Source of the DNA: Candidatus Saccharimonadota bacterium
GTDB lineage: Bacteria; Patescibacteriota; Saccharimonadia; Saccharimonadales; UBA4665
Direction: 5' to 3'
DNA length: 32,000 nt
NCBI GenBank assembly: GCA_016699955.1
Contig: CP064993.1
Span: 990,001-1,022,000 of the forward strand
Shown here: one piece after another, positions 1-16,894 of the stretch
Numbering within the stretch: position 1 is the first letter of the stretch
Layout: the number at the start of each line of letters is the position of its first letter
The notes under the pieces: model-generated
Databases searched by the model: none
The model's input: only the letters and a program-made list of their open reading frames with translations
Told to the model about the DNA's origin: nothing
Program-made: the position numbers and the translations under genes

Positions 1-124
1 GGCGAGGCGTGTGCTCAAGTATGACAATGGCATCGGCAACGCTTCGGCCTCGGACAAGCGCAGCAACTGCTGCAACTTTGCGTGGGCTCAGGCGGACGCC
101 TTTTGATTCTGCTTTAACGGCCAT
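1..124 (-). CDS. rplV: 50S ribosomal protein L22, N-terminal part (gene continues past the left edge)
   Basis: Hand translation of the minus strand from ATG at 124 gives MAVKAESKGVRLSPRKVAAVAALVRGRSVADAIVILEHTPR, a typical L22 N-terminus. It starts 3 nt after the rpsS stop, as expected for S10-operon order. Confidence 0.85.
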   Translation of the reverse strand, partial: MAVKAESKGVRLSPRKVAAVAALVRGRSVADAIVILEHTPR

Positions 125-127
125 GGC

Positions 128-400
128 TTATTTCCCCTTCGCTAACTTACCGCCGTGGTTGCGGAACTTACGAGTGGGGCTGAACTCGCCCAGCTTGTGG
201 CCGACCATGTTTTCGGTAACGAAAACCGGTACATGAACTTTGCCGTTGTGCACCGCAAAAGTTTTGCCCACAAAATCTGGCGCAATTGTGCAAGCACGAG
301 CCCATGTTTTGATAATTGTGCGATCCTCGGGGCCAAGCGCAGCGACTTTTTTCGCCAGCTTCGGATCAATAAACGGCCCTTTCTTAAGTGAACGACTCAT
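128..400 (-). CDS. rpsS: 30S ribosomal protein S19
   Basis: The 90-aa [18 protein letters not shown]...[13 protein letters not shown] carries canonical S19 motifs. It sits between rplB and rplV. Confidence 0.96.
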
Positions 401-465
401 TAATTAACTCCTCTTGCTGCTATTATTCCGCCTATGGCACCCCATACAATTCCTGTTGCCATCAT
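400..465 (-). CDS. Candidate 21-aa hydrophobic micro-ORF ([21 protein letters not shown]) in the rplB-rpsS spacer
   Basis: Hand translation. ATGATG begins 3 nt after the rplB stop and is preceded by AGAGGAAA. Its TAA overlaps the rpsS ATG (TAATG), and its last codons contain the rpsS SD (AGAGGAG). It is short, so chance cannot be excluded. Confidence 0.25.
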
Positions 466-467
466 AA

Positions 468-1298
468 TTATTTCCTCTTGGCCGCGTGGCGGCTTCTTAT
501 GATCATGTTACTAGTACTCTTGCGGCGACGGGTCTTTAAACCAAGTGTCTTTTGACCCCATGGAGTGCGAGGGGCTTTAGCCATGCGGTGACGACCACCA
601 TCACCACCACCGTGTGGGTGATCGACTGCATTCATAACAACTCCACGCACACTTGGGCGCTTGCCTAAGTGACGATTGCGACCAGCCTTACCGATTTTGA
701 CGTTTTGGTGCTGTTCATTACCAACAACACCTATAGAGGCTGTGCAGGTCAGTAGGAACCTGCGAACTTCGCCGCTCGGCATACGCACCTGAGCGTATTC
801 GCCTTCCTTGGCCATAAGCATAGCGCTGTTTCCGGCGCTGCGCACAGCTTGAGCGCCGCGGCCAGGCTTGAGTTCAAGTGCATGAATGGTTGTGCCAACT
901 GGGATGTTTGCAAGTGGCAGACGGTTTCCCATTTCAATAGCAGCTTCTTCGTGGCCACTTACTTTTTGGCCTTGTTTCATGCCACTCACCGCAAGCACAT
1001 AATGATAAGAGCCGGCAGCGTCTTTGACGCGGGCAATTCGGGCACTGCGGTTTGGATCGTACTCAATGTGTTCAACTGTTCCTTCGCCTTGGAAATTGTA
1101 GTTCATCACACGGTAGTGCCTACGCGCACCACCACCCTGATGACGGGTGGTAATACGACCTTGGTTGTTTCGACCGCTGCCGCGCTTAACACTTTTGACG
1201 AGCGATCTGACAGGCTTCTTTGTTGTCACGCCAGAAAAATCTTGGCTGGACATACCGCGCCGACCTGGCGTCGTAGGGTTGTATTGCTTAATAGCCAT
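468..1298 (-). CDS. rplB: 50S ribosomal protein L2
   Basis: The 276-aa ORF has MAIKQYNPTTPGRR... and the DHPHGGGDG motif typical of L2. Its ATG overlaps the rplW stop (TAATG). Confidence 0.97.
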   Translation of the reverse strand: MAIKQYNPTTPGRRGMSSQDFSGVTTKKPVRSLVKSVKRGSGRNNQGRITTRHQGGGARRHYRVMNYNFQGEGTVEHIEYDPNRSARIARVKDAAGSYHYVLAVSGMKQGQKVSGHEEAAIEMGNRLPLANIPVGTTIHALELKPGRGAQAVRSAGNSAMLMAKEGEYAQVRMPSGEVRRFLLTCTASIGVVGNEQHQNVKIGKAGRNRHLGKRPSVRGVVMNAVDHPHGGGDGGRHRMAKAPRTPWGQKTLGLKTRRRKSTSNMIIRSRHAAKRK

Positions 1299-1717
1299 TA
1301 TTTAGCCTCCTTTTTGCCAACAAGTTTCTTGAGGCCTTTAACCTTCGGCTTGTCACTTGTTTTAGATTCGGTTTTCTTGGCTTTTTCGGCGGCTTTTGCC
1401 TCTTTGGCAATTTCTTCTTCGGCAGCTGCAAAGAACGGTAGATGGCTGCCAGCGGCTAGGGTCACATAGGCCTTCCGGAGGTCGGCTTGAACGCCCTTGC
1501 GGTTACTACTACGCTTACCAGTTGTGTTCATAACGCGCTTTACTTTGCCTGGTCGATTCACAACACGCACTCGTTTTACGCTGACGTTAAACTGCTTCTC
1601 TACAGCATCGGCAATTTCGTGTTTGTTGAGACCACTTGGGACATCGACTGCAAATGTATTAGTCAACTGGCTTAGCCCAAAAGCTTTTTCGCTTAAGCGA
1701 GGTTTTACAAAATGCAT
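1298..1717 (-). CDS. rplW: 50S ribosomal protein L23 with a Lys/Ala/Glu-rich C-terminal extension of about 43 aa
   Basis: The L23 core (..LRKAYVTLAAG..) is followed by AAAEEEIAKEAKAAEKAKKTESKTSDKPKVKGLKKLVGKKEAK. It sits between rplD and rplB. Confidence 0.9.
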   Translation of the reverse strand: MHFVKPRLSEKAFGLSQLTNTFAVDVPSGLNKHEIADAVEKQFNVSVKRVRVVNRPGKVKRVMNTTGKRSSNRKGVQADLRKAYVTLAAGSHLPFFAAAEEEIAKEAKAAEKAKKTESKTSDKPKVKGLKKLVGKKEAK

Positions 1718-1718
1718 A

Positions 1719-2372
1719 TTATTTTACCTCAGCTTTCTGTACTGGCTTTAGCCAAGTTTCAACCGCTTTTAGGGCGTCATTGGTTATGACAATGTGATCA
1801 GCATTCATAATGTCAAAGACATTCAAATACGTTGCGCTTACCAGCATGACGTTTTGCAGGTTGGCAGTAGCATTGACCAGCTCTGCTGTCTTTGTGTCAA
1901 CAACTACTAAGGCATCACGGGTCACACCAACTTTGGCCAAAAGCTTAGCCATATCGGCAGTCTTGCCTTCTTTGCTCGCCAGCTTTTCCATCACAATAAG
2001 CTTGCCGCTGGTGCTGGCGAGGCTAAGCGCCTGACGCAAAGCTACCCGCTTGCTTGTGGTTGAAATTTTCTTTGTATAATTTTCTTCACCGGTAGGGCCA
2101 AACACAATGCCGCCGCCGCGCCAAATCGGGTTGCGCGAGCTACCGAAACGGGCTCGGCCAGTACCCTTTTGTTTCCATGGCTTTTTACCGCCACCGCGAA
2201 CTAGTCCGCGGGTTTTGACAACGGCAAGGTTTTTTCGGCCGTTAGCAAGGTAAGTTTCGTACGCCTGGCGGAGCAACTGATGATTTTTGACTTCAACGCC
2301 AAAAACTTCTTTGCTCAGTTTGGCGGCTGTCGTGGCTTTGCTACCAGCTGATGTAAATGTAGGAGTAGCCAT
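1719..2372 (-). CDS. rplD: 50S ribosomal protein L4
   Basis: The 217-aa ORF contains KTRGLVRGGGKKPWKQKGTGRARFGSSRNPIWRGGG, the canonical L4 loop. Confidence 0.96.
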   Translation of the reverse strand: MATPTFTSAGSKATTAAKLSKEVFGVEVKNHQLLRQAYETYLANGRKNLAVVKTRGLVRGGGKKPWKQKGTGRARFGSSRNPIWRGGGIVFGPTGEENYTKKISTTSKRVALRQALSLASTSGKLIVMEKLASKEGKTADMAKLLAKVGVTRDALVVVDTKTAELVNATANLQNVMLVSATYLNVFDIMNADHIVITNDALKAVETWLKPVQKAEVK

Positions 2373-2374
2373 AA

Positions 2375-2995
2375 TTATTTCTCCTCCCCTTTAACAAAAA
2401 CAATGCCTTTACGTGGGCCGGGGACTGCCCCAACAACACCGATATAGCCTTTTTCGGCATCGACGAGTGCTATTTTAAGGTTGCGGACAGTAACTTGCTC
2501 ATGACCGAGGTGTCCGGCCATTTTTTTACCTGGGAGAATGTGCTGAGGGTACATAGAGCCAATTGATCCAACTCGTCGGTAGCTGCGGCCACCATGAGTC
2601 TTGCGACCGCGGTGGAAATTGTGACGACGAATGGTGCCTGCCCAACCCTTACCTTTGCTGGTACCTGTTACATGGACTGTGTCACCAACTGAAAAGACCT
2701 CGGCGTTGATGATTTCTCCAACTTTGAGGTCTTCGGTTAGTTCTGGGACGCGGAACTCGCGCATAATACGCACGATTTGCTTCGCTCCTTTAAGGTGCCC
2801 GACTTGCGGCTTTGCTATTTTGCTTTCTTTCACTTCCTCGCAGCCGAGCTGAACGGCAGTATAGCCGTCTGTTTCGTCGGTTTTCACCTGCGTAATGACG
2901 CAGGGACTAGCGGAAAGCAAGGTTACAGCAGTCGCAGTACCGTCTTCAGCGATGGTAGTGGTCATGCCAACCTTTCTAGTTATTAGTGCTTTCAT
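2375..2995 (-). CDS. rplC: 50S ribosomal protein L3
   Basis: The 206-aa ORF has MKALITRKVGMT... and GTSKGKGWAGTIRRHNF, both L3 motifs. Confidence 0.96.
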   Translation of the reverse strand: MKALITRKVGMTTTIAEDGTATAVTLLSASPCVITQVKTDETDGYTAVQLGCEEVKESKIAKPQVGHLKGAKQIVRIMREFRVPELTEDLKVGEIINAEVFSVGDTVHVTGTSKGKGWAGTIRRHNFHRGRKTHGGRSYRRVGSIGSMYPQHILPGKKMAGHLGHEQVTVRNLKIALVDAEKGYIGVVGAVPGPRKGIVFVKGEEK

Positions 2996-3194
2996 AGTGT
3001 TTGAGCAGGCTCATTAGAACCCACACTCTCCTTTGTTTATAAGAGTTATTTGATACAAATACTCACTCATTCCGCGCTTTGTGACTTGTACATTGACACA
3101 AAAATTTTGGTGGCCGGTGGTTTCTACTCTGTAGTTATGTACCCTAGTAGACCTACCTTACATCACCATGCGGAAATGTTTGTATGTAAACATC

Positions 3195-3224
3195 AGATTA
3201 CCACAAAACTCAAACACCTGTCAA
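3195..3224 (-). promoter_or_regulatory. Putative sigma70-type promoter for rplC-rplD-rplW-rplB (TTGACA-18 nt-TGgTAATCT, extended -10)
   Basis: The minus strand reads gggTTGACAggtgtttgagttttgTGgTAATCTgatg. It lies about 200 nt upstream of the rplC ATG inside an AT-rich spacer. Confidence 0.35.
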
Positions 3225-3370
3225 CCCGTTGTTTATTTTGCAACCTTCAGTAATTTTTCGCAAAAAACTCTGTCACAACATTTGAATAGTGGTTTCAGTA
3301 CACAGCTAAAGATATGCAGTGTTACTACCATAAAATACCACAGCAGTATTGTCGTATTAATAAATTGTAA

Positions 3371-3679
3371 CTACAGCTTTTGACCCGTAGATCCATCGTT
3401 TAAATTAGGAATTTTAGGAATTCCTAGCTCTTGCCTTATGCGCGGAATGTCGGCCGACGATATCTGAGTGCCCGCATATGGATTTTTTTGCCCACCGTAC
3501 GAACCGTCTCTGAAGGCAGCTACTCCACCCTCGTCAGTTGCAAAACCAAATAAACGTAAGTTTAGCCTAAGATCACTATCAGAAATTTCAGCGCCCCCTG
3601 CTGCAATATGACCCATATATCTTTCCTTTCGAGAAATATCGCTTACTCCGGCGTCAGAACCTTGTTCTATGCTAGCCAT
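3371..3679 (-). CDS. Hypothetical protein (102 aa) inserted between rpsJ and rplC
   Basis: It is the only long ORF in the gap. A strong SD (AAGGAG) sits 7 nt before ATG 3679; the ORF track starts 3 nt earlier at GTG 3682. A promoter-like motif lies immediately upstream. I recognise no family. Confidence 0.55.
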
Positions 3680-3708
3680 CACAGTACTCCTTTACGAATA
3701 TGGTTAAT

Positions 3709-3737
3709 ATCTTACCGTATTTTGTTACTTTTGTCAA
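3709..3737 (-). promoter_or_regulatory. Putative promoter TTGACA-17 nt-TAAGAT, starting 1 nt after the rpsJ stop and driving the 102-aa ORF
   Basis: The minus strand reads TAAgTTGACAaaagtaacaaaatacggTAAGATattaacc...AAAGGAGtactgtgATG. Confidence 0.45.
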
Positions 3738-3738
3738 C

Positions 3739-4071
3739 TTACATTTTGATTTCGACGTCGCAGCCGGCAGGAAGTGACAGATTCATGAGGCTGTCGATAG
3801 TCTTTGGAGTCGGATCAAACACGTCTATGAGGCGCTTGTGTACGCGCATTTCAAACTGTTCGCGACCTTTTTTGAAAACGTGCGGACTTTTGACTACTGT
3901 AAATGTGCTTTTGCGCGTAGGCAATGGGATTGGCCCAGCCAGACTCGCGCCCGTGCGCAGTGCGGTGTCGACAATTTGTTTGGCCGCTTGGTCGATGATT
4001 TTGTGGTCATAGGCCTTCAAGCGAATACGGATTCGCTGTTTGCCTGCTTGCGTTTGAGTGGCGTCTGCCAT
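3739..4071 (-). CDS. rpsJ: 30S ribosomal protein S10
   Basis: The 110-aa ORF has [22 protein letters not shown]...GPIPLPT...[23 protein letters not shown], canonical for S10. Confidence 0.96.
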
Positions 4072-4092
4072 AGTAAAAACCTCCGTGTTTTT

Positions 4093-4120
4093 TGGTTATT
4101 AGTTCTAGGTTATAGGTTAT
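4093..4120. repeat. Three copies of GGTTAT (ATAACC on the coding strand) just upstream of the rpsJ SD; two are a tandem 7-mer AGGTTAT
   Basis: Read directly: tGGTTATt at 4093-4100, aGGTTAT at 4107-4113 and aGGTTAT at 4114-4120. The SD GGAGG is at about 4080-4084. Confidence 0.6.
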
Positions 4121-4250
4121 AAGGAAAACCCTTGAGCACTACATCCCTTCTGCAAACGGCCGGCTTCACCCGGCTGGGCCTTGTAACACCTTACGAATTC
4201 ACTTGGGAACGCGCATGGCTTTTAGTCAAAGCTACTGGTTTACGGGTACA

Positions 4251-4278
4251 ATTCTACCATACTTTGAACCATTATCAA
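4251..4278 (-). promoter_or_regulatory. Putative rpsJ promoter TTGATA-16 nt-TGgTAGAAT (extended -10)
   Basis: The minus strand reads TAAtctctgggtTTGATAatggttcaaagtaTGgTAGAATtgtaccc, directly after the stop of the upstream 161-aa ORF. It implies a leader of about 170 nt. Confidence 0.45.
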
Positions 4279-4287
4279 ACCCAGAGA

Positions 4288-4773
4288 TTACTCCGCCCAC
4301 TGCCGACGCTCGTCTAACAACCTCTTATAGGCGCCCGAAGCTGCGGTTCCGACAACGATTGCTCCAGCAAATATTCTTGCCCTAGGCGATAAAAAGACAT
4401 TTGTGATTGCACGCTTGCTTTCCGCCATGTCTTCGATATTGAACGGGAGTGAAGGTGGTATTGTGGCTTTAAGGTGTTTACCGCCTACAAAGGCCTCCAT
4501 TGAAGCATGCGATCTCCCGGTCGTGCCGCGTACAACACGGAGTATCCCCACTAAGCCGGCGATTTCTTCTGATTTGTCTACCAAGTCAGTTTCCCACCAT
4601 AATTCAGGTAGATGCTCCCCTGGCTTATGCAAGTAGACTGCGAACTGTCTTTCTTTTCGTTCAGTCGTCCCGTCCACGATACGATGCACAAATACATCCA
4701 ATATTGATCCGTAGGTATGTTGATAACCCCATATTTCGGGTCCGCCTGGATCTTCTCCGACAACTATAGACAT
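4288..4773 (-). CDS. Hypothetical protein (161 aa from ATG 4773; the ORF track uses TTG 4782) with one C-terminal hydrophobic helix (tail-anchor-like)
   Basis: It is the only long ORF here. The C-terminus ...RARIFAGAIVVGTAASGAYKRLLDERRQWAE is TM-like. It lies 40-50 nt downstream of the J-domain gene. I recognise no family and see no clear SD. Confidence 0.5.
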   Translation of the reverse strand: MSIVVGEDPGGPEIWGYQHTYGSILDVFVHRIVDGTTERKERQFAVYLHKPGEHLPELWWETDLVDKSEEIAGLVGILRVVRGTTGRSHASMEAFVGGKHLKATIPPSLPFNIEDMAESKRAITNVFLSPRARIFAGAIVVGTAASGAYKRLLDERRQWAE

Positions 4774-4822
4774 ATGTGGCAACTATACGTCTGCACGGCT
4801 GCGGTGGCTGTAAGAATATTAA

Positions 4823-5248
4823 CTATTTCGTTCCGTTTGGTCTATAAAATTTTAGTACAGAAGCAGCTTTTTTGTGAAGTGGTTGTTTGACCGTTTTAGC
4901 GGAATATTCGGCGAAGATTGCATCTATGAACTCATCCATTTCGTCATCCGTCATGTCTGTCTCAGCGCCGTCATATGCAACATCGCCGCGGTACTGTACC
5001 GTGCTCGTACCGGTTTGGAAACCATGCATGCTATCGTATGATTTCCTTGTGCGTGGATCTCTAAGTGTTTCGTAGGCTTTGTTGAGCAGCTGCATATGCT
5101 CAAGCGAACCGCCAGCGTCGGGGTGCTGCTGTTTGGCATGATGTATATATGCCTGACGTATATCAGCCGGTAGAGCGTCGGTTTCTAGTCCGAGTATCTC
5201 GTAATAGTCGACAAATCTTTTCGGGGGCGGGTTACTCATGCCATACAT
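4823..5248 (-). CDS. Small stand-alone J-domain (DnaJ-like co-chaperone) protein, 141 aa
   Basis: VDYYEILGLETDALPADIRQAYIHHAKQQHPDAGGSLEHMQLLNKAYETLRDPRTRKSYD is a J-domain with the HPD tripeptide. There is no Gly/Phe or zinc-finger region. An alternative start is ATG 5239 (MSNPPP..). Confidence 0.8.
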   Translation of the reverse strand: MYGMSNPPPKRFVDYYEILGLETDALPADIRQAYIHHAKQQHPDAGGSLEHMQLLNKAYETLRDPRTRKSYDSMHGFQTGTSTVQYRGDVAYDGAETDMTDDEMDEFIDAIFAEYSAKTVKQPLHKKAASVLKFYRPNGTK

Positions 5249-5268
5249 AGTATAGCGTTACTTTTGTT

Positions 5269-5298
5269 AAAGAGAAAAAGCGCTCCGGAGTGGAGCGC
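5269..5298 (-). terminator. Rho-independent terminator downstream of tuf
   Basis: The minus strand has GCGCTCC-actcc-GGAGCGC (7-bp GC stem) followed by TTTTTCTCTTT, about 30 nt after the tuf stop. Confidence 0.7.
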
Positions 5299-5327
5299 CC
5301 TTCTATTTTTGGTCATCCCAAGTAAAA

Positions 5328-6512
<1,185 letters not shown>

Positions 6513-6748
6513 GAGTGACGCTTCGCTTTAATGAGACAAACGTATGCTTTTCTCATCGCTCGGGGCGACGAAATATATCCGTCGTCTCCGGCCGCTCTTT
6601 TCCTGAAAAATCAGGTGAGCAAGCGAACCTTTCTTTATATTAAAAATTATTATTAAAAGTTGTTCACGCGGTCCATATTGCTACACCGTTTGCACGTACT
6701 ACAGCAACGCCCTCACGCGAGATACGCTGTTAAGTATAGGGAAATAAC

Positions 6749-7063
6749 TTATATTTGTAAATCCCCTTCGTAACTTTCTGCACTGGGCTTTGGTTGTATA
6801 CTGACAACGACGGTACATGGTGGTGGCTCTGCAGAATAATCTTTGGCATGGTGCCCAGGGCATTTTGTGTTGCAGGCCGTTGCGACTCTTACTAACAAAG
6901 GGACTCCCGTATCTAGTTCAACTAAATCACTTAGTGCGGCTAAAGTGATAATGCAGACATCCAGCCCCCAGCTACGTTGTTCTAGGTCACACATATCTTG
7001 AACACAGCAGTTTCGGTTAACCACCGTTGTGATGCTAGAACCTTCCGCTAGTCTAAATGCCAT
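6749..7063 (-). CDS. Hypothetical Cys-rich protein (104 aa) between fusA and tuf
   Basis: It is the only ORF of 60 aa or more in this gap, and has 7 Cys (NCCVQDMC, ACNTKCPGHH). There is no convincing SD and I recognise no family. Confidence 0.4.
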   Translation of the reverse strand: MAFRLAEGSSITTVVNRNCCVQDMCDLEQRSWGLDVCIITLAALSDLVELDTGVPLLVRVATACNTKCPGHHAKDYSAEPPPCTVVVSIQPKPSAESYEGDLQI

Positions 7064-7109
7064 TACCGATAATCTCTGGAGAAGGTTGCTTCAAGCTGCT
7101 TTATAGTTG

Positions 7110-7526
7110 CTATTCATATTTTAATTTGAGGTCAAGTTTGTCTGCTATCTGAAATATCCACTTCTCCATGCGGTCTTGCTGATGATCGCGCGCTAGGTTC
7201 TCCTGCATAATCTCTTCGATACGTTTCATATGGCCATCGAGTACGCCATAAATATGATCAAGTTTTTTATCGATCTTATCAAAGCGCTGATCGTGTTCTT
7301 CGAGCTTATCTTCTACTCTAAACAAACGTGCGTCCAGATTATCTAGGCGTTTATCGACGCCGTCTAGGCGCTTGTCGACGCCGTCTAGGCGCTTGTCGAC
7401 GCCGTCTAGGCGCTTGTCGACGCCGTCTATGCGCTTGTCGACGCCGTCAAACCTATCAGATACCATCTGAGACAAATCAGCTATAGCTGAAAACACATCG
7501 TCGAGATCGGTTGGCTTGTTTACCAT
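7110..7526 (-). CDS. Hypothetical coiled-coil protein (138 aa) with tandem heptad repeats DGVDKR(L/I)
   Basis: RFDGVDKRIDGVDKRLDGVDKRLDGVDKRLDGVDKRLDNLDARLFRVEDKLEEHDQRFDKIDKKLD has heptad periodicity. It starts 18 nt after the fusA stop. Confidence 0.65.
   Translation of the reverse strand: MVNKPTDLDDVFSAIADLSQMVSDRFDGVDKRIDGVDKRLDGVDKRLDGVDKRLDGVDKRLDNLDARLFRVEDKLEEHDQRFDKIDKKLDHIYGVLDGHMKRIEEIMQENLARDHQQDRMEKWIFQIADKLDLKLKYE
7342..7446. repeat. Five tandem copies of a 21-bp unit (tctaggcgcttgtcgacgccg), in frame inside the 138-aa ORF
   Basis: Read directly. Copies 2-4 (7363-7425) are identical, copy 1 has 2 substitutions and copy 5 has 1. Confidence 0.92.
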
Positions 7527-7544
7527 AGTAAACGTATTCTACAC

Positions 7545-9632
7545 CTACTTACTGTTTTTGGCGATGATGGCTTCGGCGACGTTGTTTGGTACGTCTGCGT
7601 AGTGAGCAAGTTCCATACTGGAACTGGCACGACCTTGGCTCATAGAGCGCAGGTTGGTTGTGTAACCAAACATCTCACCAAGCGGTACAAATGCTGTTAT
7701 TTCTTTTATGCCCGATGAAAGGTCTTCCATGGACTCAATCCGACCGCGTTTGCTGTTTAAGTCTCCAATAACATCACCCATAAACTCTTCAGGGGTGACA
7801 ACAACGACTTTCATGACTGGCTCCAGTAGCACTGGATTTGCTCTTTTAAAGCCTTCCTGGAAACCCATGCTACCAGCGATGCTAAAGGCCATTTCGCTTG
7901 AGTCAACTTCATGGTAGCTGCCATCGTAAAGCTCTACTTTTACGTCGACTACTGGGTAACCGGCGAGGACACCGTTGCCGAGTGCTTCTTCGATGCCTTT
8001 GCGGACTGCCGATATGTATTCGCTTGGTACAACACCGCCCTTAATAGAGTTGATAAACTCAAAACCAGCACCTTGTTCGTTTTGACTTAGGCGAAGCCAA
8101 ACGTCACCGTACTGACCGCGACCACCGCTTTGACGGACAAATTTGCCTTGCGCTTCGACGGCATCTTTACGAATAGTTTCTCGGTAAGCAACCTGTGGCT
8201 GGCCAATGTTCGCTTCAACGCTAAACTCGCGCTTCATACGATCAACCAAGATTTCAAGGTGAAGTTCACCCATACCAGAAATGATGGTTTGGCCGGTTTC
8301 ATCGTCGACACGGACACGGAAGGTAGGGTCTTCTTCGGCCAAGCGCTGAAGTGCGAGGCTCATTTTTTCTTGGTCGGCCTTAGTTTTTGGCTCTATGGCA
8401 ATAGACACCGGTGGCTCTGGGAAGGTAATGTTTTCGAGCTGAATGGGGTGCACTGGGTCACAAAGTGTGTTTCCTGTTGTTGTACCCTTGAGCCCCACAA
8501 TGGCGGCAATGTCACCTGCGACAACTTCTGTCACGTCTTCACGTTTGTCTGCCTGCATACGGACAATACGGCCGACGCGTTCTTTCTCACCCGTTGAGCT
8601 GTTTAGCACATACGAACCAGCCTGCAAAGTTCCCGAGTAAACACGGAAGTAGGCAAGTTTACCGACAAATGGGTCGGTTGTGATTTTGAAAGCAAGGCCG
8701 GCAAGCGGTTCGCTGGCGTCGTGTTTGCGCTCTATTTCATCACCAGTTTTGGGATGTACGCCCCAGGTGTTGCTACAATCGCTTGGCGCTGGCAGGTAAT
8801 CGTTTACCATGTCCAGCACTTTTTCGACTATAACGCCACGGCCATCACCGCCAGTGACTGCGTAGAACTTGCTACTGAGGACTGCGCTGCGAATGGCTTG
8901 TTTAACATCGGCCACAGTAAGCCCCTCTTCGCCCACCTCAAAGTATTTTTCGAGCATGGCTTCGTCTTCGGCCACAGCGTTTTCGATGAGCAGGCTGCGG
9001 TATTTCTTGACCTGTTCCATCATGTCAGCCGGTATGTCACCCTCAACGAGCTCATGGTCGTGGAACTCTGTATAGGTGTAGGCCTTCATTGAAACGAGAT
9101 CTACGACACCATTGATGCTTTGTTCAAAACCAATCGGCAAGTGAACGGGAAATGCACGCTTGCTCAAACGGTTGTGAATACTTTCGAGCGACTTGTAAAA
9201 ATCGCCACCAGTTTGGTTGATTTTGTTGATAAAACATATACGAGGCACGCCGTATTTGTCGGCTTGACGCCACACGGTTTCACTTTGGCTTTCGACACCC
9301 ATTTTGCCGTCGAATACTACACAAGCGCCATCAAGGACTCGGAGTGAGCGCTCCACCTCGGCCGTAAAGTCAATGTGGCCAGGTGTATCGATAATATTTA
9401 TCTGCTTACCCTGCCAGAAACAGGTCACGGCAGCCGAAACAATGGTAATACCACGCTCGCGCTCCTGCTCCATCCAGTCAGTAGTCGTTCCACCCTCGTG
9501 AACAGCACCGATTTTGTGCTTTAGGCCAGTTCGGTACAAAATACCTTCGGTCGTGGTTGTTTTACCCGCGTCAATATGGGCAATAATGCCAATGTTGCGG
9601 ATGTCCTTCATTTCTACTTTCTTATCTGCCAT
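7545..9632 (-). CDS. fusA: Translation elongation factor G
   Basis: The 695-aa ORF has AHIDAGKTTTTE, DTPGHIDF and NKIN motifs, plus EF-G domains through the C-terminus. Confidence 0.98.
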   Translation of the reverse strand: MADKKVEMKDIRNIGIIAHIDAGKTTTTEGILYRTGLKHKIGAVHEGGTTTDWMEQERERGITIVSAAVTCFWQGKQINIIDTPGHIDFTAEVERSLRVLDGACVVFDGKMGVESQSETVWRQADKYGVPRICFINKINQTGGDFYKSLESIHNRLSKRAFPVHLPIGFEQSINGVVDLVSMKAYTYTEFHDHELVEGDIPADMMEQVKKYRSLLIENAVAEDEAMLEKYFEVGEEGLTVADVKQAIRSAVLSSKFYAVTGGDGRGVIVEKVLDMVNDYLPAPSDCSNTWGVHPKTGDEIERKHDASEPLAGLAFKITTDPFVGKLAYFRVYSGTLQAGSYVLNSSTGEKERVGRIVRMQADKREDVTEVVAGDIAAIVGLKGTTTGNTLCDPVHPIQLENITFPEPPVSIAIEPKTKADQEKMSLALQRLAEEDPTFRVRVDDETGQTIISGMGELHLEILVDRMKREFSVEANIGQPQVAYRETIRKDAVEAQGKFVRQSGGRGQYGDVWLRLSQNEQGAGFEFINSIKGGVVPSEYISAVRKGIEEALGNGVLAGYPVVDVKVELYDGSYHEVDSSEMAFSIAGSMGFQEGFKRANPVLLEPVMKVVVVTPEEFMGDVIGDLNSKRGRIESMEDLSSGIKEITAFVPLGEMFGYTTNLRSMSQGRASSSMELAHYADVPNNVAEAIIAKNSK

Positions 9633-9673
9633 GTGATCCTCGCTCTGCTATTAATTACAGCTTTATAAGTTGG

Positions 9674-10207
9674 TTATTTTCTACGGTCAATTAATCCAAG
9701 CGCTCCTAAAACTTTGTGAAATGGGCCTATGCTTGGTGTTTCCGATACTTCCACTTTAGGGTCTCGCGCTTGAACCCAAGGTGTTTCTGCTCGCTTAATT
9801 TCATTTTGGAATATATCTACCCAAGGAGCCTTCGGAAAATCATCTACAGCATCTTTCAGCGTATTGACCCAAGTATTGCCTGTAATGACATCACCAAGTC
9901 GCTTAAGCCATGCAGCATCACGAGGGTTTGTTAAATTTCCAAGGTCGTCATATTGACGGTCGGCGCCCGAACCGTCGCATATAGTCATAGGCCAGCTATT
10001 CACAGTCTCGTTCCATGAATAGACGTCCCAGAACCTTGCTGATGTTATGAAACCTTCCCTTTTTACAATCCTGCTTTCGGCATCAGGGTCCTCGACGTCA
10101 ACAACTCCTGACGGGTATCCATCGAGTGTTTCAAATGCTATAGAGGTTTTTCCACATACTTCAGGATCTGCACAAACGAATCGAAGTGGGCATTCTGGGC
10201 GCGCCAT
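9674..10207 (-). CDS. Hypothetical protein (177 aa) inserted between rpsG and fusA
   Basis: It is the only long same-strand ORF in the gap. Its ATG lies 6 nt after the rpsG stop, with GAGG inside the rpsG 3' end. It is Trp-rich with Cys at positions 6, 12, 18 and 77. I recognise no family. Confidence 0.55.
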   Translation of the reverse strand: MARPECPLRFVCADPEVCGKTSIAFETLDGYPSGVVDVEDPDAESRIVKREGFITSARFWDVYSWNETVNSWPMTICDGSGADRQYDDLGNLTNPRDAAWLKRLGDVITGNTWVNTLKDAVDDFPKAPWVDIFQNEIKRAETPWVQARDPKVEVSETPSIGPFHKVLGALGLIDRRK

Positions 10208-10213
10208 GACGTG

Positions 10214-10693
10214 TTAGCCTCGGGCGAAGTGAGCAAATGCTCGGTTAGCTTCAGCCATGCGGTGGGTTTCTTCACGCTTTTTAACGGCGTTGCCTTGGTT
10301 GTTGTAGGCATCCATAAGTTCTAAAGCAATACGGTCAGCCATACTCATACCCTTGCGGCTGCGGCAAGCGGCTACAAACCACATAGTAGTTAGGTGGTTT
10401 TGGCGCTGGCCTTTGACTTCAAATGGAATCTGGTAATTGGCACCACCGACGCGGCGAGAACGAGTTTCGACACTTGGGCGGACATTGCCAAATGCTTGGT
10501 CAAAAACCTCTAGTGGGTTTTCGACCTTTAGCTTGTCGGCGGCTTTTTGCATACCTTCGTAGACCAAGCGCTCAGCAACTTGTTTTTTGCCGTCGCGCAT
10601 GACACGGTTTATTAGCCGCTGAACGGCTACACTGTTGTACACGCGGTCGGCCGGGATGTCCCGTACTAGTGAGGCGGTAACTTTTCTAGGCAT
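10214..10693 (-). CDS. rpsG: 30S ribosomal protein S7
   Basis: The 159-aa ORF has MPRK...GKK..AERLVY and RRVGGANYQIP, both S7 motifs. Confidence 0.97.
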   Translation of the reverse strand: MPRKVTASLVRDIPADRVYNSVAVQRLINRVMRDGKKQVAERLVYEGMQKAADKLKVENPLEVFDQAFGNVRPSVETRSRRVGGANYQIPFEVKGQRQNHLTTMWFVAACRSRKGMSMADRIALELMDAYNNQGNAVKKREETHRMAEANRAFAHFARG

Positions 10694-11001
10694 TATAAAT
10701 TCCTCCCTGCCATCTGAAGAGCATTAGCTATCTCATGAACCGTTCCTGGCCTTCCAGCCGCTCCCCTGGGTGTGAATCTACCGCCAGCATTTAATGTGGC
10801 AATCCGAGCTAATGCTTCTTGGCTAGAGTCACTGAGTATTCCGAATGTCTCCCTCAAACAGGCCCCCCCAGCAGGCAATGAAACAATCGCCGCAGCTACT
10901 AATAAATCATGGCAATCAACCTTAGGATTCGTGCGAGAATACATGTAACATTTTTCACCCACGCAATTGGGAGTCCGACCTCTCATTACCCAAGTGCTCA
11001 T
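10693..11001 (-). CDS. Hypothetical protein (102 aa) fused between rpsL and rpsG by overlapping stop/start codons
   Basis: Its ATG overlaps the rpsL TAA (TAATG) and its TAA overlaps the rpsG ATG (TAATG). AAGGAG in the last rpsL codons lies 8 nt upstream, and its own last codons carry the rpsG SD (GGGAGG). No competing ORF of 60 aa or more is present on either strand. Confidence 0.55.
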   Translation of the reverse strand: MSTWVMRGRTPNCVGEKCYMYSRTNPKVDCHDLLVAAAIVSLPAGGACLRETFGILSDSSQEALARIATLNAGGRFTPRGAAGRPGTVHEIANALQMAGRNL

Positions 11002-11414
11002 TATTTGCTCTCCTTTTTAGCACCGTACTTGCTACGGCCTTGTTTGCGGTTTTGAACGCCCTGAAGGTCGAGTGTGCCACGTACAATGTGATAGCGCACA
11101 CCTGGAAGGTCTTTGACTCGGCCGCCACGGATCATTACAACAGCATGTTCCTGAAGGTTGTGGCCTTCACCGCCAATGTATGCCCAAACTTCGTAACCGT
11201 TCCCAAGGCGCACGCGGGCTACCTTGCGAAGGGCTGAGTTTGGTTTCTTAGGTGTTTTGGTCGTGACTTTTACGCACACTCCGCGCTTAAACGGCGCAGG
11301 TTTTTCGTAGCTTTTAGTCTTTAGGTTGTTGGTAACGCGCATGAGCGCCGGTGATTTTGTTTTGCTGGTCACCTTAGTACGCGGTTTGCGTACCAATTGA
11401 TTGATTGTAGGCAA
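11001..11414 (-). CDS. rpsL: 30S ribosomal protein S12
   Basis: Starting at TTG 11414 gives (M)[11 protein letters not shown].., the canonical S12 N-terminus, and [11 protein letters not shown] is present. The ORF-track start at GTG 11447 would add 11 non-homologous residues. Confidence 0.95.
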
Positions 11415-11531
11415 AGTATGCCCCTTCCCGAGACTACAGGGTCTCACTTATATTCGCTGAAGAGAATTTTCTCCTCTACCGCCAAGATCTGCACATACCG
11501 CAGACCAGCTCGAATTTGATATGACTGAAAC

Positions 11532-11560
11532 ATTGTAACAGATATGGCAAAGTCTGACAA
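11532..11560 (-). promoter_or_regulatory. Putative str-cluster promoter TTGTCA-17 nt-TGtTACAAT (extended -10)
   Basis: The minus strand reads gggTTGTCAgactttgccatatcTGtTACAATgtttcag, about 110 nt upstream of the rpsL start. Confidence 0.5.
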
Positions 11561-11613
11561 CCCGCGTGGGCGTAATACTTATCGACAACTGTGCTACACT
11601 AAAAACTATTGAG

Positions 11614-12933
11614 ATGAAGAACAATACTCGTACACTCGCTGTCGTTGGGCTCGGCTACGTTGGGCTGCCGCTGGCAGTCGAAGCAGCTCTAAAGGGCTAC
11701 ACGGTTACCGGCATAGATATAAATAAAAGCCTTTTACGTCTTGTAGATGCACGAACCTCGCCTTATGCCAACGACACGCGTTTTGAGAAAGCACTTGCCC
11801 GGGTTGCACCGAAGCAGCTTGTCACCACAACAGATTATTCGGCGCTCCAGAGTGTAGAGACAATAATTATATGTGTCCCAACGCCAACCGAGCACAACGT
11901 GCCAGATTTAAGCCTGATTGAAATCGCTTCAAAAAGCGTGGCTGCTCAGTTACAGAAAGGCCAACTGATTGTTCTTGAGAGCACCGTAAACCCAGGCGTG
12001 ACACGAGACGTTGTGCTGCCAATTATCGAAAAGGCATCTGGCCTTGTGGTGGGCCGAGATTTTTACCTGGCTCATTGCCCCGAGCGAATCGACCCGGGCA
12101 ACCCGCAGTACTACGTCGGCAACCTAAACCGAGTTGTTGGCGGTGTTACGCCAGCCTGCACAAAAAAAGCTGTGGCATTTTACAAAAGCATCATTGACGC
12201 CAAAATTATTCCGCTTGGGTCGGCCGAAGAAGCTGAATTTGTCAAATCGTGGGAAAACACACAGCGCAATGTCATGATAGCCATGGCAAATAGTGCGGCA
12301 ATCATCTGCGATGCAGTCGGTATGGATGTTCAGCGCGTACGGGAAGGGTTGCAGTCAAAAGTTGACCAGTTTGGCCTTAAATTAGCCGTCCCAGGCATCG
12401 GTCCCGGCGGCCACTGTATACCAGAAGATATTCACTACGTTATCAAGCGCGCCCGAGAAAGTGGCATAGATACACGTTTCTTAGACGATGCGGCCGAGCT
12501 CAACGACCGCATGCCAAAGTACGCGGTACGGCGACTAAGTGGCCTCGTAAAAGCCCATGGTGAAAACCTGCGCGATCTACGCGTTGCCTTGCTAGGTTTG
12601 GCGTACAAGCCAGACATAGCAGACACGCGCAAATCCGCTGCAATTGAAGCTGGCTTTGTCTTGCAGCGCTACGCCGGATCCGTTACGGCCTATGATCCTT
12701 ACGTTGTCGATTCTTCACTCGTTCGTCCGTTTGAACTTTCAAAATCGCTCGAAAGTGCTTTGCGTAGTTCCGATGTGGTATTTATAGCCACAGCACACTC
12801 TGAGTTTGAGAAAATTCTCACTCCAGCTCTTCTAAAAAAACATCATGTTCGGTATGTGCTAGATGGACGTAATATTCTAGATAAATCGGCTATAGAAAAA
12901 GCCGGCATTGCCTACCGCGGCATTGGCCGATAG
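11614..12933 (+). CDS. Nucleotide-sugar dehydrogenase of the UDP-glucose/GDP-mannose dehydrogenase family (UDP-ManNAc/UDP-GlcNAc dehydrogenase-like)
   Basis: It has the N-terminal Rossmann motif VVGLGYVGLPLA and the catalytic-Cys motif GGHCIPED. ATG 11614 (MKNNTRTLAVVG) is preferred over the ORF-track GTG 11566. Confidence 0.85.
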   Translation: MKNNTRTLAVVGLGYVGLPLAVEAALKGYTVTGIDINKSLLRLVDARTSPYANDTRFEKALARVAPKQLVTTTDYSALQSVETIIICVPTPTEHNVPDLSLIEIASKSVAAQLQKGQLIVLESTVNPGVTRDVVLPIIEKASGLVVGRDFYLAHCPERIDPGNPQYYVGNLNRVVGGVTPACTKKAVAFYKSIIDAKIIPLGSAEEAEFVKSWENTQRNVMIAMANSAAIICDAVGMDVQRVREGLQSKVDQFGLKLAVPGIGPGGHCIPEDIHYVIKRARESGIDTRFLDDAAELNDRMPKYAVRRLSGLVKAHGENLRDLRVALLGLAYKPDIADTRKSAAIEAGFVLQRYAGSVTAYDPYVVDSSLVRPFELSKSLESALRSSDVVFIATAHSEFEKILTPALLKKHHVRYVLDGRNILDKSAIEKAGIAYRGIGR

Positions 12934-12994
12934 GTGCCAGTTTTTAAGTAGGTCGAGTTTAGCTGAAGTCATATTTTGCATCAGACAAGCTAAA

Positions 12995-13036
12995 ACACCC
13001 CGCTCTTTTTAAGCAGGGTGTCTTGTTGTTTATTTT
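12995..13036. terminator. Bidirectional intrinsic terminator between the convergent dehydrogenase gene and rpoC
   Basis: ACACCCCGCT-cttttta-AGCAGGGTGT forms a 10-bp stem with 1 mismatch. It is flanked by a T-run on the plus strand (cttgttgtttatttt) and on the minus strand (ttttag). Confidence 0.6.
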
Positions 13037-13041
13037 GACGT

Positions 13042-16000
13042 TTAGCCTTCGGCGCGGAAGGTTTGGTCGTTGTGGTATTCTTCGACCACATCATCGCCTT
13101 CGTCGAGGGCATTGCTCGCTCCGTAGCCTGTGCCAACAGGGATCTTGCGACCGAGTATGACATTTTCCTTCAGACCGAATAGCTTATCGACTCGGCCACT
13201 TGTGGCAGCCCCTATAAGTACACGAGTTGTGTCCTGGAAGCTTGCCGCACTGAGGAAGGAGTCGGTCGAGAGTGAAGCCTTGGTAATCCCAAGTAAGAGT
13301 TGGTTTACTTTTGCTGGTTGCTTACCATCGGCTACAAGAGCCTCGTTGGCTTCGGCAACCGCAAGTTTGCTTACAACATCACCCGTCACGAACTCGCTGT
13401 CACCAGCGTCTTCTACTTGAACACGGCTAAACATTTGACGCACAATTATTTCAAGGTGCTTGTCTGAGATGTTTTGACCCTGCCCGGCGAAAATACCAAG
13501 AATCTCGTTCATGATATAGCGCTGCGTCGACTCTACGCCTTGCAACCTTACAAGGTCATGCAGGTTAATAGACCCATTCGTCAAACGCTGACCAGCTACA
13601 ACAACGTCGCCGTCTTGTACGAGTAGCTGCTTAAAGCCAGGAATTTCGTAGCGAACAACACTTTTACTCGTTGGAGTAATGATGACTGACTTGTCGGTTA
13701 GCTCAGCCTTGCCAGCCATCGGTGATACAAGTGGTTCTGCACCGTCGCTTTGGCTGGCGAGAACATCTCCAATCGCAACATCGCTACCGCTCGCAATTTT
13801 TGCAGTCCGGCCTTCGAGGGCGAGTTCAAGATTCTCCCTGTCGTTGGCGGTAACTTGTACAATGTAGCGTTCGCCTTCTTCCCACGCGTTGACAACACCA
13901 TTGATGTCTGCCAAATATGCCTGACCCTTCGGTGAACGAGCTTCAAAAAGCTCTTCCACGCGTGACAGACCTTGCGCCGTATCGTCGGCAACAACTGCAC
14001 CGGAACGGTGCTTTGAGTCAAGCGAAAGCTGCGTGCCTGGTTCGCCAATACTTTGAGCAGCTATGACACCAATTGGATTATGGCTAGTAACGAGGTTGCC
14101 GGTTGCCGGATCTACGCCGTAACTTTTCTGCGGTACGCCATGGACTGATGTCGCACTGAGTGCACTACGTATTTTTATGCCGTCAAGTTTTTCATCGGCA
14201 TCGATGGCTTCGGCGGTAGCTTTTGTAAACAGTTCACCTGATTTTATGTGTCCTTTTACGTCTTCGGCTGCAAACCGACCTTCAAGTCGCGATGCATAGG
14301 AAACGCCAATAGCTGCTGCGTCCGCACGAAGCATTGAAAACCCAGGGTCTGCGGCATCATCGCCGTCGTCGTCAATGGTAAAGACGTCTTGAGAAACGTC
14401 AACCAAGCGACGCGTGAGATAGCCAGCATCGGCTGTCTTCAAGGCAATGTCAATCACGGCCTTACGAGTACCGCGAGTACCAGTAAAGTACTCGAGTGGT
14501 GTCAGACCTTGCATGTAGCCAGCCTTAACCGGCAGCTCAATAACATGGCCAGCGGCATCTTGGAAAACACCGAGCATACCGACAGACATTTTCATCTGCG
14601 AAATATTACCGCGGGCACCAGAGGTAATGGCAATTGCCATTGGACCGTCCTGGTCTCGCATTTGTTCAGCCAGCATGTTTTGGACGCGAGTATCTATTTT
14701 GGTCCAGTTTTCAACAGTCAAACGGTGGCGTTCATCATCAGTAATGAAGCCCTGTTCAAACTGTTCAGATATACCAGCACTTCGGGTTTCGCCTTCGCTC
14801 AAAGTTTCTTGGAGTCCTTCGATTGGTTCAAAGTCGCCCATGCCCATGCTAAGCCCAGAAAGCGTCGCATAACGGAATCCGAGGTCTTTCAAGTTGTCAG
14901 CAATTTCAGCCGTTTTTTCTTGACCGTACTGCGCGTAAACCGCAGCCATGACTTTTTGCAAACGCTTTTTCGTCATTGCTTCGTCTTGGTAAGCGAAGTC
15001 ATCTGGGAAAATTTCGTTGAAATACATGCGGCCAAGTGTTGTTTCGCGAAGTTCTCCGCGGAAAGGTGCCAGCACTCGACTTTGCAAAGTGACAACTCCT
15101 GCGTCAAATGCCATTGATGCCTCGTTAAGACTTGAGAATACTCTTGGCTTCTGCTGTTCCCCAGGACGCTCATAGGTCAAGTAGTAACAGCCGAGCACAA
15201 TATCCTGCTCAATGTGCAAAATAGGCGAGCCGTCGGCTGGTTTAAGCAAGTTTCGATTGGCCGACATAATATCTCGCGCTTCGTGCTGAGCGGCATCTGA
15301 CAACGGCAGATGAACTGCCATTTGGTCACCGTCAAAGTCAGCGTTAAAGCCCTTACAAACCAGCGGGTGGAGCTGAATAGCCCGACCTTCAATTAAAACT
15401 GGCTGAAAAGCTTGAATACTCAAGCGGTGCAGCGATGGAGCACGGTTCAAAAGAACGTATTTTCCAGTGATGACTTCGTCAAGCGCGTCCCAGACTTCGG
15501 TTTCACCCGTTTCGATCATGCGAGTCGCACTTCGTATGTTGTGAGCCTGTTCTCGGAAGATAAGCTCGCCGATCACAAATGGTTTAAACAGTTCAAGGGC
15601 CATCATTTTCGGTAAGCCACACTGGTTAATTTTAAGCTCTGGTCCAGCAACAATCACCGACCGGCCAGAGTAATCAACTCGCTTTCCGAGGAGGTTCTGG
15701 CGGAAACGACCCTGCTTTCCTTTCAGCATGTCACTGAGGCTTTTCAGGCGACGGCGCTGGCCGGTAGCAGCGACAGCACGGCCACTGCGAGCGTTGTTGT
15801 TGTCGATGAGTGCGTCAACCGCCTCCTGTAGCATGCGTTGCTCATTGCGACGGATGACTTCAGGGGCATTGAGCTCCATGAGCTTTTTCAGCCTGTTATT
15901 GCGGTTTATGACGCGGCGATAGAGGTCGTTTAAGTCGCTGGTTGCGAATCGACCACCTGTCAGCTGCACCATCGGGCGCAAGTCTGGAGGAATAACCGGT

Positions 16001-16893: not shown

Positions 16894-16894
16894 A

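Follow-up and report, generated by a model that had tools for sequence, protein, structure and literature searches.

Why does the gene order of ribosomal-protein and elongation-factor operons, a textbook case of a frozen arrangement, appear interrupted at nearly every junction in a member of the Saccharibacteria? These operons serve as syntenic markers for the binning and phylogeny of uncultured bacteria. We analysed a stretch of 32,000 nucleotides (nt) from contig CP064993.1, a closed 1.21-Mb metagenome-assembled genome of Candidatus Saccharibacteria; this whole stretch is referred to as the window. Seven extra open reading frames (ORFs), named X1 to X7 in operon order, and a micro-ORF of 21 codons lie among rpsL, rpsG, fusA, tuf, rpsJ and rplC and between rplB and rpsS, all on the minus strand. 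A large load of orphan genes is typical of genomes of the Candidate Phyla Radiation. A literature search found no published description of this arrangement in Saccharibacteria or Patescibacteria.

Two options had been put forward in the original prediction: the ORFs encode lineage-specific proteins that are co-expressed, and perhaps associated, with the translation machinery, or they are selfish genes that colonize junctions between invariant genes. The set proved to be heterogeneous and therefore neither option covers all of it. The contents of the gaps are mixed and comprise apparently real proteins (X2, X5 and X6), orphans (X3 and X7) and non-genic or proto-genic frames (X1, X4 and the micro-ORF). 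We favour, with moderate confidence, the reading that the str-S10 gaps serve as small slots for gene turnover between core genes, which makes them a variant of the core-flanked hotspots of Oliveira et al. (2017, PMC5635113).

Extra ORFs in the str-S10 region

The extra ORFs were predicted to lie on the operon strand between the str and S10 genes, and this was borne out throughout the region. In operon order (window positions, minus strand), rpsL (11001-11414) is followed by X1 (102 aa, 10693-11001) and rpsG (10214-10693), rpsG by X2 (177 aa, 9674-10207) and fusA (7545-9632), and fusA by X3 (138 aa, 7110-7526), X4 (104 aa, 6749-7063) and tuf (5328-6512). The tuf-rpsJ gap holds X5, which encodes a J domain (4823-5248), and X6 (161 aa counted from the ATG, 4288-4782). 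X7 (102 aa, 3371-3682) follows rpsJ (3739-4071), and the adjoining 375 nt (2996-3370) hold no minus-strand ORF of 40 aa or more. The genes rplC-rplD-rplW-rplB extend down to position 468, and the micro-ORF (400-465) fills the gap before rpsS (128-400). The predicted TAATG overlaps were found: X1 has one at either end, and the micro-ORF has one at its 3' end. The shared orientation of these ORFs is the default here, nearly all genes of the window being on the minus strand. Upstream of the cluster lie rpoB and rpoC (13042-20323).

In each of six gaps the longest sense-strand ORF exceeded those of 2000 shuffles (P from <0.0005 to 0.03). X4 alone was marginal, with P=0.012 on the sense strand and P=0.036 on either strand. 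A codon-usage log-odds score (bits per codon) trained on conserved window genes gave +0.17 to +0.40 for eight ribosomal proteins and a mean of -0.27 for shadow ORFs. X3 had the highest score of the seven extra ORFs (+0.54), followed by X5 (+0.27), X7 (+0.21), X2 (+0.11) and X6 (+0.10). Scores of X4 (-0.05) and X1 (-0.19) were negative, and the X1 frame was not the best of the six.

As read from accession and locus-tag numbering, GenBank annotates X2 (QQS19640.1), X3, X5 (QQS19636.1), X6 (IPL85_05195) and X7 (IPL85_05185), and neither X1 nor X4. Between S12 (QQS19642.1) and X2 there is one accession, presumably that of rpsG, and none for X1; the single accession and single locus tag between fusA and tuf leave room for X3 and none for X4. 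Codon signal and annotation both set X1 and X4 apart from the other extra ORFs. The GC content at third codon positions is lower in X1, X2, X4 and X7 (0.35-0.40 vs about 0.5), and junction contents are distributed patchily on the tree; both observations bear on horizontal acquisition, for which no donor was identified. The predicted products of X2 to X7 are acidic, with isoelectric points of 4.6-6.4 vs 9.8-11.5 for the flanking ribosomal proteins.

Junction contents turn over between close relatives

A fusA-based scan with one genome per GTDB species yielded 80 loci, the first 23 of which are Saccharibacteria-like. Closer relatives (L081 onwards; L-numbers denote loci from related genomes) were found through homologues of X2 and X6. 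In a core-protein tree the window paired with L087, in a clade with L081 and L083, and L001 plus L002 formed the sister group; core identity was 92-96%.

The same core-gene interval holds different accessory genes in these related genomes. At rpsL-rpsG the window carries X1, and L087, L083 and L081 carry nothing. The rpsG-fusA gap is occupied by X2 in the window, L083 and L081, and by a gene for a 121-aa PF05635 protein in L087; L084 and L086 have an empty rpsL-rpsG junction and X2 in rpsG-fusA. At fusA-tuf the window has X3 and X4, L087 a gene for a 94-aa GIY-YIG protein, L083 an ORF of 157 aa and L081 one of 96 aa. Between tuf and rpsJ, where the window has X5 and X6, L087 contains a coiled-coil gene (35% identity to X3) together with X5 (70%) and X6 (61%), L083 has X5 (44%) and an ORF of 282 aa, and L081 has X5 (39%) and ORFs of 74, 151 and 299 aa. 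At rpsJ-rplC, the X7 slot, the relatives hold unrelated ORFs: one of 74 aa in L087, two of 318 and 146 aa in L083, and 311, 91 and 578 aa and more in L081. Thus, X5 is found in all four genomes of the clade and X6 in the window and L087 only, and X1, X4, X7 and the micro-ORF are confined to the window. Even ORFs of similar length at corresponding positions in L081 and L083 (282/299 aa and 311/318 aa) are only 22-27% identical. The junction-by-junction comparison of relatives that had been proposed as a check therefore revealed turnover between close genomes. In the 80 loci fetched through fusA, X1 to X7 had no relative at E≤1e-3, and the reverse search, with the relatives' gap ORFs against the window, gave no match.

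The original prediction presumed that these junctions are normally tight, but for four of them this is not so across Saccharibacteria generally. We defined a junction as open if its gap is at least 150 nt and compared the 23 Saccharibacteria-like loci with 39 loci from outside the Patescibacteria. The rpsG-fusA junction was open in 13/20 vs 4/39 loci, fusA-tuf in 17/21 vs 5/17, tuf-rpsJ in 13/17 vs 5/13 and rpsJ-rplC in 10/11 (six exceeding 600 nt) vs 7/12 (none exceeding 600 nt). The rpsL-rpsG junction and those from rplC through rpsS remain tight, and L003 is compact, with junctions of 3, 16, 114, 52 and 229 nt. In other loci the four open junctions contain ORFs of 75 to 700 aa and reach 7.5 kb. 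The occupants are mostly unrelated among genomes and 72% of them are co-directional; where they can be recognized, ordinary enzymes are among them, such as CTP synthase, alpha-amylase, an aminotransferase, VanY and a histidine kinase. Since four junctions are routinely open in Saccharibacteria and their contents differ at about 95% core identity, contig-level assumptions of a 'ribosomal block' are unsafe there.

A conserved membrane protein of about 90 aa is encoded in the rpsJ-rplC interval of many Saccharibacteria, among them L001, L002, L004, L009, L018 and L081 (e.g. L081, 18283-18558), at 33-60% identity. The window, L087 and L083 lack it.

X2, X5 and X6 are conserved proteins

X2 has full-length homologues at 80, 67 and 57% identity, all located between rpsG and fusA, and this position is kept in five genomes (window, L081, L083, L084 and L086). 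An N-terminal motif, PECPLRFVC, is invariant among the homologues. X2 matched no family in Pfam or NCBIfam, a PDB sequence search was empty, and a metagenome scan with an X2 profile added one short locus only.

X5 is a small J-domain-only protein of 141 aa, or of 138 aa if translation starts at the second ATG at 5239, the start chosen in GenBank. The J domain (residues 14-72) matched Pfam DnaJ PF00226 with 56.0 bits against a cut-off of 27.8 and contains the HPD motif in the context AKQQHPDAGG. The match to full-length DnaJ (TIGR02349) was below threshold, 59 bits vs a cut-off of 377, and covered only the first approximately 104 of 354 profile positions. Unlike full-length DnaJ, X5 lacks the glycine/phenylalanine-rich region, the zinc finger and the C-terminal substrate-binding domains; it contains no cysteine, and its C-terminal tail is conserved and acidic. 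Type III J proteins are co-chaperones that consist of a J domain only, and Zuotin is a ribosome-associated J protein of eukaryotes. X5 resembles these proteins in its canonical J domain with HPD, its short unrelated tail and the location of its gene beside translation genes; it is confined to a four-genome clade. Orthologues lie directly after tuf in L087, L083 and L081.

X6 has a hydrophobic C-terminal helix and one homologue (P0006, 61% identity), which occupies the same position in L087-L090; X5 and X6 are adjacent in the window and in L087. PDB sequence searches with X6 were empty. According to the original prediction no extra ORF apart from the J-domain gene resembles a recognizable family. 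Searches of Pfam, NCBIfam, PHROGs and PADLOC bore this out: besides the J domain of X5 they recognized only a generic coiled coil in X3. AlphaFold2 models were poor, with a predicted local distance difference test score of 41 for X2 (four sequences) and of 50 for X6 (two sequences), neither model being usable.

Selection was estimated from the ratio of nonsynonymous to synonymous substitution rates (dN/dS), as had also been proposed, and it is purifying for X2 (dN/dS 0.13-0.41), X5 (0.09-0.24) and X6 (0.28). The core genes rpsG, fusA, tuf, rpsJ, rplD and rplB gave 0.01-0.08, and the neighbours of X2 gave 0.02-0.08. Synonymous divergence (dS) to the nearest long relative is already about 1-2, so that unconstrained sequence would be beyond recognition at such distance. 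X2, X5 and X6 thus appear to be real, vertically inherited and fast-evolving proteins under relaxed yet clear purifying selection.

Kept position and dN/dS speak for the first option of the original prediction, lineage-specific proteins, as far as X2, X5 and X6 are concerned. For the proposed link to the translation machinery the case is different, because nothing ties these three acidic proteins (isoelectric points 4.7-6.4 vs 10-11.5 for ribosomal proteins) to the ribosome and promoters and leaders are separate (see below). A stronger version would see the extra ORFs as dedicated, lineage-specific translation accessory factors that are co-expressed with their neighbours, with X5, for example, recruiting DnaK to nascent chains and X6 as its partner. 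The location of X5 after tuf in four genomes and of X2 between rpsG and fusA in five, the purifying selection on both, the intact J domain with its HPD and the adjacency of X5 and X6 agree with such a function. However, conservation fails for five of the seven ORFs even where core proteins are 92-96% identical, and X2 is dispensable, an unrelated cassette taking its place in L087. A terminator separates tuf from X5, X1 to X7 matched no ribosomal or ribosome-factor family in Pfam or NCBIfam, and in more distant Saccharibacteria the corresponding junctions are taken up by unrelated housekeeping genes. We therefore regard dedicated translation factors as an unlikely explanation. The low-confidence X6 model drew only chains of the DnaK substrate-binding domain to the top of the Foldseek PDB search, which would fit a partner of X5, but these hits were non-significant (E 0.04-0.6, template modelling score about 0.17) and had no sequence support; the assignment was rejected as noise.

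X3 and X7 are orphans and X4 is unsupported

X3 is an annotated gene for a coiled-coil protein. It contains five tandem heptads, DGVDKRL, encoded by a 21-nt tandem repeat at 7342-7448 (Tandem Repeats Finder: period 21, 5.1 copies, 96% matches), and it matched generic coiled coils only (DUF7310 below cut-off, and phrog_5553). Its relative in L087, at 35% identity, is located at another junction, tuf-rpsJ. For X7, an annotated orphan, the only match among 5.8 billion proteins was X7 itself; the gene has its own promoter-like site at 3737-3709 (minus strand; TTGACA-17-TAAGAT, promoter scan). With their native codon usage, X3 and X7 look like expressed orphans.

X4 is rich in cysteine, and its stop codon lies inside the promoter-like site of tuf (6761-6733, TTTACA-17-TATACT, promoter scan). 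No relative of X4 was found in the relatives' loci or in viral contigs. X4 is an unsupported ORF, and X1 and X4 are both probably not genes in the ordinary sense.

These results bear on another explanation, in which the extra frames are open by chance, lie in non-coding spacers that have expanded, and encode nothing. The absence of coding signature, annotation and homologue for X1 and X4, the marginal length of X4 and the shortness of the micro-ORF (P=0.03) are what one would expect from such frames. Full-length orthologues under purifying selection already refute this for X2, X5 and X6. Moreover, X3, X5 and X7 have codon scores like those of ribosomal genes, every gap exceeds the shuffles, and approximately 3.5 kb of pure spacer in the most expressed region would be surprising for a reduced genome of 1.2 Mb. 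As an account of the whole set, chance frames are very improbable.

Promoters, leaders and the R1 motif

Three non-coding blocks of the region are 75-85% identical to L087, L083 or L081 despite saturated synonymous sites. The tuf leader (6743-6628) is 75-83% identical in L087, L081 and L083. Upstream of rpsJ, a block of 141 nt (4287-4147) is 82-85% identical in L087 and L083; it includes a GC-rich hairpin and a promoter-like site at 4278-4251 (TTGATA-16-TAGAAT, with a TG extended -10). The block upstream of rplC (3231-3017) starts with TTGACA-N17/18-TAATCT, followed by a structured-looking leader of about 190 nt. It is 84% identical to L087 and shares conserved blocks and covarying-looking hairpins with L083. 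No minus-strand ORF longer than 32 aa was present in 3017-3231, which falls within the 375-nt stretch described above. The rplC leader may be a ribosomal-protein autoregulatory leader. A further promoter-like site lies upstream of rpsL at 11560-11532 (minus strand). Downstream of tuf we read from the sequence an intrinsic terminator at 5269-5298 (minus strand), GCGCTCC-ACT-CCGGAGCGC followed by TTTTTCTCTTT.

The tuf terminator and the individual promoters and leaders of tuf, rpsJ and rplC indicate that the region is not one shared transcript, and these promoters and leaders therefore place X3/X4, X5/X6 and X7 at the ends of units. The separately promoted units would be rpsL-rpsG-X2-fusA-X3, tuf, X5-X6, rpsJ, X7, and rplC onward. 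An insertion at such an end leaves essential genes free of polar effects; X1, X2 and the micro-ORF are the only ones located inside a unit. Just past the tuf terminator a TATACT box (5239-5256, minus strand) abuts the first ATG of X5; transcription may yield an mRNA with a very short leader or none.

The tuf leader region also contains a two-hairpin RNA motif of approximately 83 nt, here called R1 (6608-6526, minus strand), which ends 18 nt before the tuf ATG. It consists of GGAAAAGAGC, a covarying stem and then CGAUGAGAAAAnC...GUUUGUCUCAU, and ends 18-24 nt before a start codon. Changes on both sides were seen in 6/21 pairs, a count from four sequences only. Copies with covariance-model scores of 90-98 bits are located upstream of tuf in L081 (13242-13326), at rplW-rplB in L083 (16488-16572) and at rpsL-rpsG in L001 (8766-8849); a weaker and more distant copy lies about 70 nt upstream of rpsJ in L008 (20187-20261). 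R1 may be a mobile leader or a processing signal. Rfam 15 gave no match at E≤1 over window 1-12000, which includes R1 and the rplC leader block.

Insertions into coupled junctions are bridged by ORFs

Alignment with L084, L081 and L083 showed that X1 exactly fills a 308-nt insertion placed at the ancestral TAATG overlap of rpsL and rpsG. The ancestral junction reads ...GAGAGCAAATAATGCC...; in the window exactly 308 nt were added after that ATG and the new end is ...TTTATAATG. The start codon of X1 is therefore the former one of rpsG, and its stop lies on a rebuilt overlap. The insertion is missing from the five nearest relatives (L081, L083, L084, L086 and L087). The X1 ORF spans its gap (shuffle P=0.0005), and among 1.84 billion representative proteins no homologue was found; the sole two matches were repeat-driven and to giant proteins. 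A 6-nt ATAATG repeat flanks the insertion, which may reflect functional convergence of signals composed of ribosome-binding site (RBS), stop and start. X1 is best seen as a probable bridging ORF or proto-gene and not as an established gene; under the coupling filter proposed below it is probably translated, yet no evolved gene. As a candidate structured RNA X1 was rejected, the insertion RNA being less structured than shuffles (z=+2.45).

The micro-ORF has the same geometry. It is hydrophobic, bridges a 67-nt insertion at rplB-rpsS, where the junction of relatives measures 6-16 nt, and ends in TAATG. It covers 88% of its gap (shuffle P=0.03-0.04), and the RBS-stop-start motif is present at both ends of the insertion. 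Neither the X1 insertion nor the micro-ORF had a second copy in the window or in the relatives' loci compared.

The geometry was then tested in every gap of 45-450 nt in the relatives. Together with the window, normally tight junctions contain eight bridged insertions: rpsL-rpsG and rplB-rpsS in the window, rplC-rplD, rplW-rplB, rplB-rpsS and rplE-rpsN in L087, rplW-rplB in L083 and rpsL-rpsG in L001. In all eight the ORF spans 88-98% of the insertion, its start lies no more than 11 nt from the stop codon of the preceding gene, and it ends on the ATG of the following one. Shuffle tests of seven gave P≤0.04 in every case; the eighth, L087 rplE-rpsN, is a near-identical second copy and was left outside this set. 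The bridged insertions fall into at least five unrelated sequence families. Ordinary spacers of more distant genomes, in contrast, contain no bridging ORF.

We infer that an insertion before an essential coupled gene is tolerated only where ribosomes keep translating across the junction, because this would preserve coupling and avoid polarity. X1 and the micro-ORF would then be short insertions into coupled stop/start overlaps, with frames that run from the old start codon to the rebuilt TAATG. Rickettsia palindromic elements and miniature inverted-repeat transposable elements are short repeated elements that become translated (reviewed in PMC10969869). The bridged insertions resemble them in that about 65-310 nt are kept open in the local frame and that relatives contain multiple copies. 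Unlike these elements, they form separate bridging ORFs between genes and do not lie inside coding sequence, and X1 and the micro-ORF are single-copy in the sequences compared.

Selfish-type elements occupy the same junctions in L087

In L087, the closest relative, the rpsG-fusA junction, which is the X2 slot of the window, contains a cassette of approximately 430 nt (4577-5006) with a PF05635 (S23p/bAvd) gene at 4608-4973. Its arms are 31-nt inverted repeats, 94% complementary and built of GAGTTAA/GAGATAA heptamers. In Coxiella, RNase III excises from 23S rRNA an intervening sequence of 428 nt that carries an S23p ORF and heptamer repeats and is closed by a terminal stem of 28 bp (PMC4990558). 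The L087 cassette resembles it in size, in its S23p ORF and in its heptamer-built terminal repeats. It differs in that it lies in a junction of an mRNA operon and not in rRNA, and the likeness is one of sequence layout.

Heptamer repeats (GAGACAA/GAGTTAA) also form mini-elements at four ribosomal-protein junctions of L087 (13525-13635, 18386-18496, 14471-14570 and 17304-17339). Those at rplW-rplB and rplE-rpsN are 97% identical; the others are located at rplB-rpsS and at the 5' end of rplX. Three are ORF-bridged (rplW-rplB, rplE-rpsN and rplB-rpsS), and the fourth lengthens rplX in frame at its 5' end. Finally, at fusA-tuf (7115-7563) the gene for the 94-aa GIY-YIG protein, which we take to be of the single-domain type and not a demonstrated homing enzyme, is directly preceded by two perfect direct repeats of 59 nt (7115-7173 and 7211-7269). 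The elements of L087 show that these junctions can be colonized by selfish-type elements.

By these findings the second option of the original prediction, selfish colonizers, gains some ground. In T-even phages, free-standing homing endonuclease genes (seg/mob) lie between conserved genes, and the window ORFs are likewise small, co-directional and intergenic between conserved genes, with polymorphic presence or absence. If the extra ORFs were selfish genes that actively target junctions of invariant genes, in the manner of homing endonucleases or intervening-sequence elements, this would account for the cassette and the GIY-YIG gene in the corresponding junctions of L087, for short repeats at several ribosomal-protein junctions, for R1 at differing junctions, for the presence/absence pattern per junction and for X1, a precise insertion flanked by ATAATG. 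But the window ORFs, unlike seg/mob genes, contain no endonuclease domain, and the only gene of a nuclease family is the GIY-YIG gene of L087. None of the seven matched a nuclease family in Pfam, NCBIfam or PHROGs at E≤0.1-1, or an integrase, transposase or other mobile-element domain in these three libraries and PADLOC. The window has no PF05635 match in Pfam, and no flanking inverted repeats were found at any extra ORF, only pairs at chance level. The window and the 90 further loci fetched gave no additional copy of X1 to X7, scans of viral contigs with X1, X3 and X4 were negative, and X2, X5 and X6 behave as vertically inherited. In PADLOC and toxin-antitoxin searches X3 gave coiled-coil noise (best DruC, 26 bits) and the other ORFs gave nothing. 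Active targeting by selfish genes is thus a rather improbable origin of the window ORFs.

A related proposal combines the bridging geometry with the elements of L087. Translational coupling itself would create peptides: insertions would survive only if they are ORF-bridged, X1 and the micro-ORF would be translated at ribosomal-protein levels from birth, and the same junctions would be colonized by mobile RNA-level modules, namely intervening-sequence-type cassettes, heptamer mini-elements and R1. We put this forward tentatively, as a possibility that falls short of being probable. If it is true, junctions of mRNA operons are a further home of elements hitherto known from rRNA genes only.

The gaps as probable gene-turnover slots

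Small gene-turnover slots between core genes remain, in our judgement, the better-than-even reading of the gaps. Unit-end spaces and two intra-operon junctions would be permissive slots in which lineage-restricted DNA is gained, lost and replaced quickly. Conserved flanks would serve as recombination anchors, read-through or local promoters would supply expression, and bridging frames would be kept by a coupling or polarity filter.

Core-flanked hotspots have been described as a few fixed positions between core genes at which accessory genes gather and turn over rapidly (Oliveira et al., 2017, PMC5635113). Like these hotspots, the slots of the window vary in content between close relatives while their flanks are collinear. 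Unlike them, they are tiny (in the close clade each holds one or two ORFs, 75-300 aa long) and lie within or between ribosomal-protein and elongation-factor operons without an integrase or tRNA anchor. Their occupants are mostly orphans and not recognizable mobile or defence genes, in line with the negative PADLOC result.

Several observations weigh against gene-turnover slots as an explanation. The J-domain gene right after tuf in four genomes could mean a functional link to translation; the turnover reading treats this placement as incidental. It could also be that the bridging frames are nothing more than authentic genes for small proteins. The window ORFs have no integrase, no tRNA and no clear target-site duplication beyond ATAATG, and no direct sign of transfer or recombination was seen. 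At a dS of about 1-2 some ORFs scored as absent could be orthologues that have diverged beyond recognition, as the positional pairs of L081 and L083 illustrate. The status of X2, X5 and X6 as real proteins is based on conservation and codon usage only.

As turnover slots, the gaps would be a tractable place to watch orphan genes arise, diverge and be replaced beside strong promoters. The ORF-bridged cases hint at a testable rule for the insertions that an essential operon with translational coupling tolerates. Three concrete leads emerge: R1, the J-domain gene that follows tuf and, in an mRNA junction, the intervening-sequence-type cassette.

Elsewhere in the window, three co-directional ORFs of 153, 250 and 278 aa without a Pfam family (23322-23783, 25170-25922 and 28374-29210, minus strand) interleave with the genes for trigger factor, HisRS, an SPFH protein, RsmD and RecG. 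Extra ORFs between housekeeping genes are therefore common in this genome and not specific to str/S10.

The rpoC-rpsL interval (11448-13041) is a further variable slot. In the window it is occupied by a plus-strand gene for UDP-glucose dehydrogenase. The corresponding interval contains an IS1595-family transposase gene in L081 (7740-8735), a gene for a CdiI_N immunity-like protein in L084 (92-526), and genes for a helix-turn-helix regulator and a cadherin/Big_9 repeat protein in L087 (160-3480).

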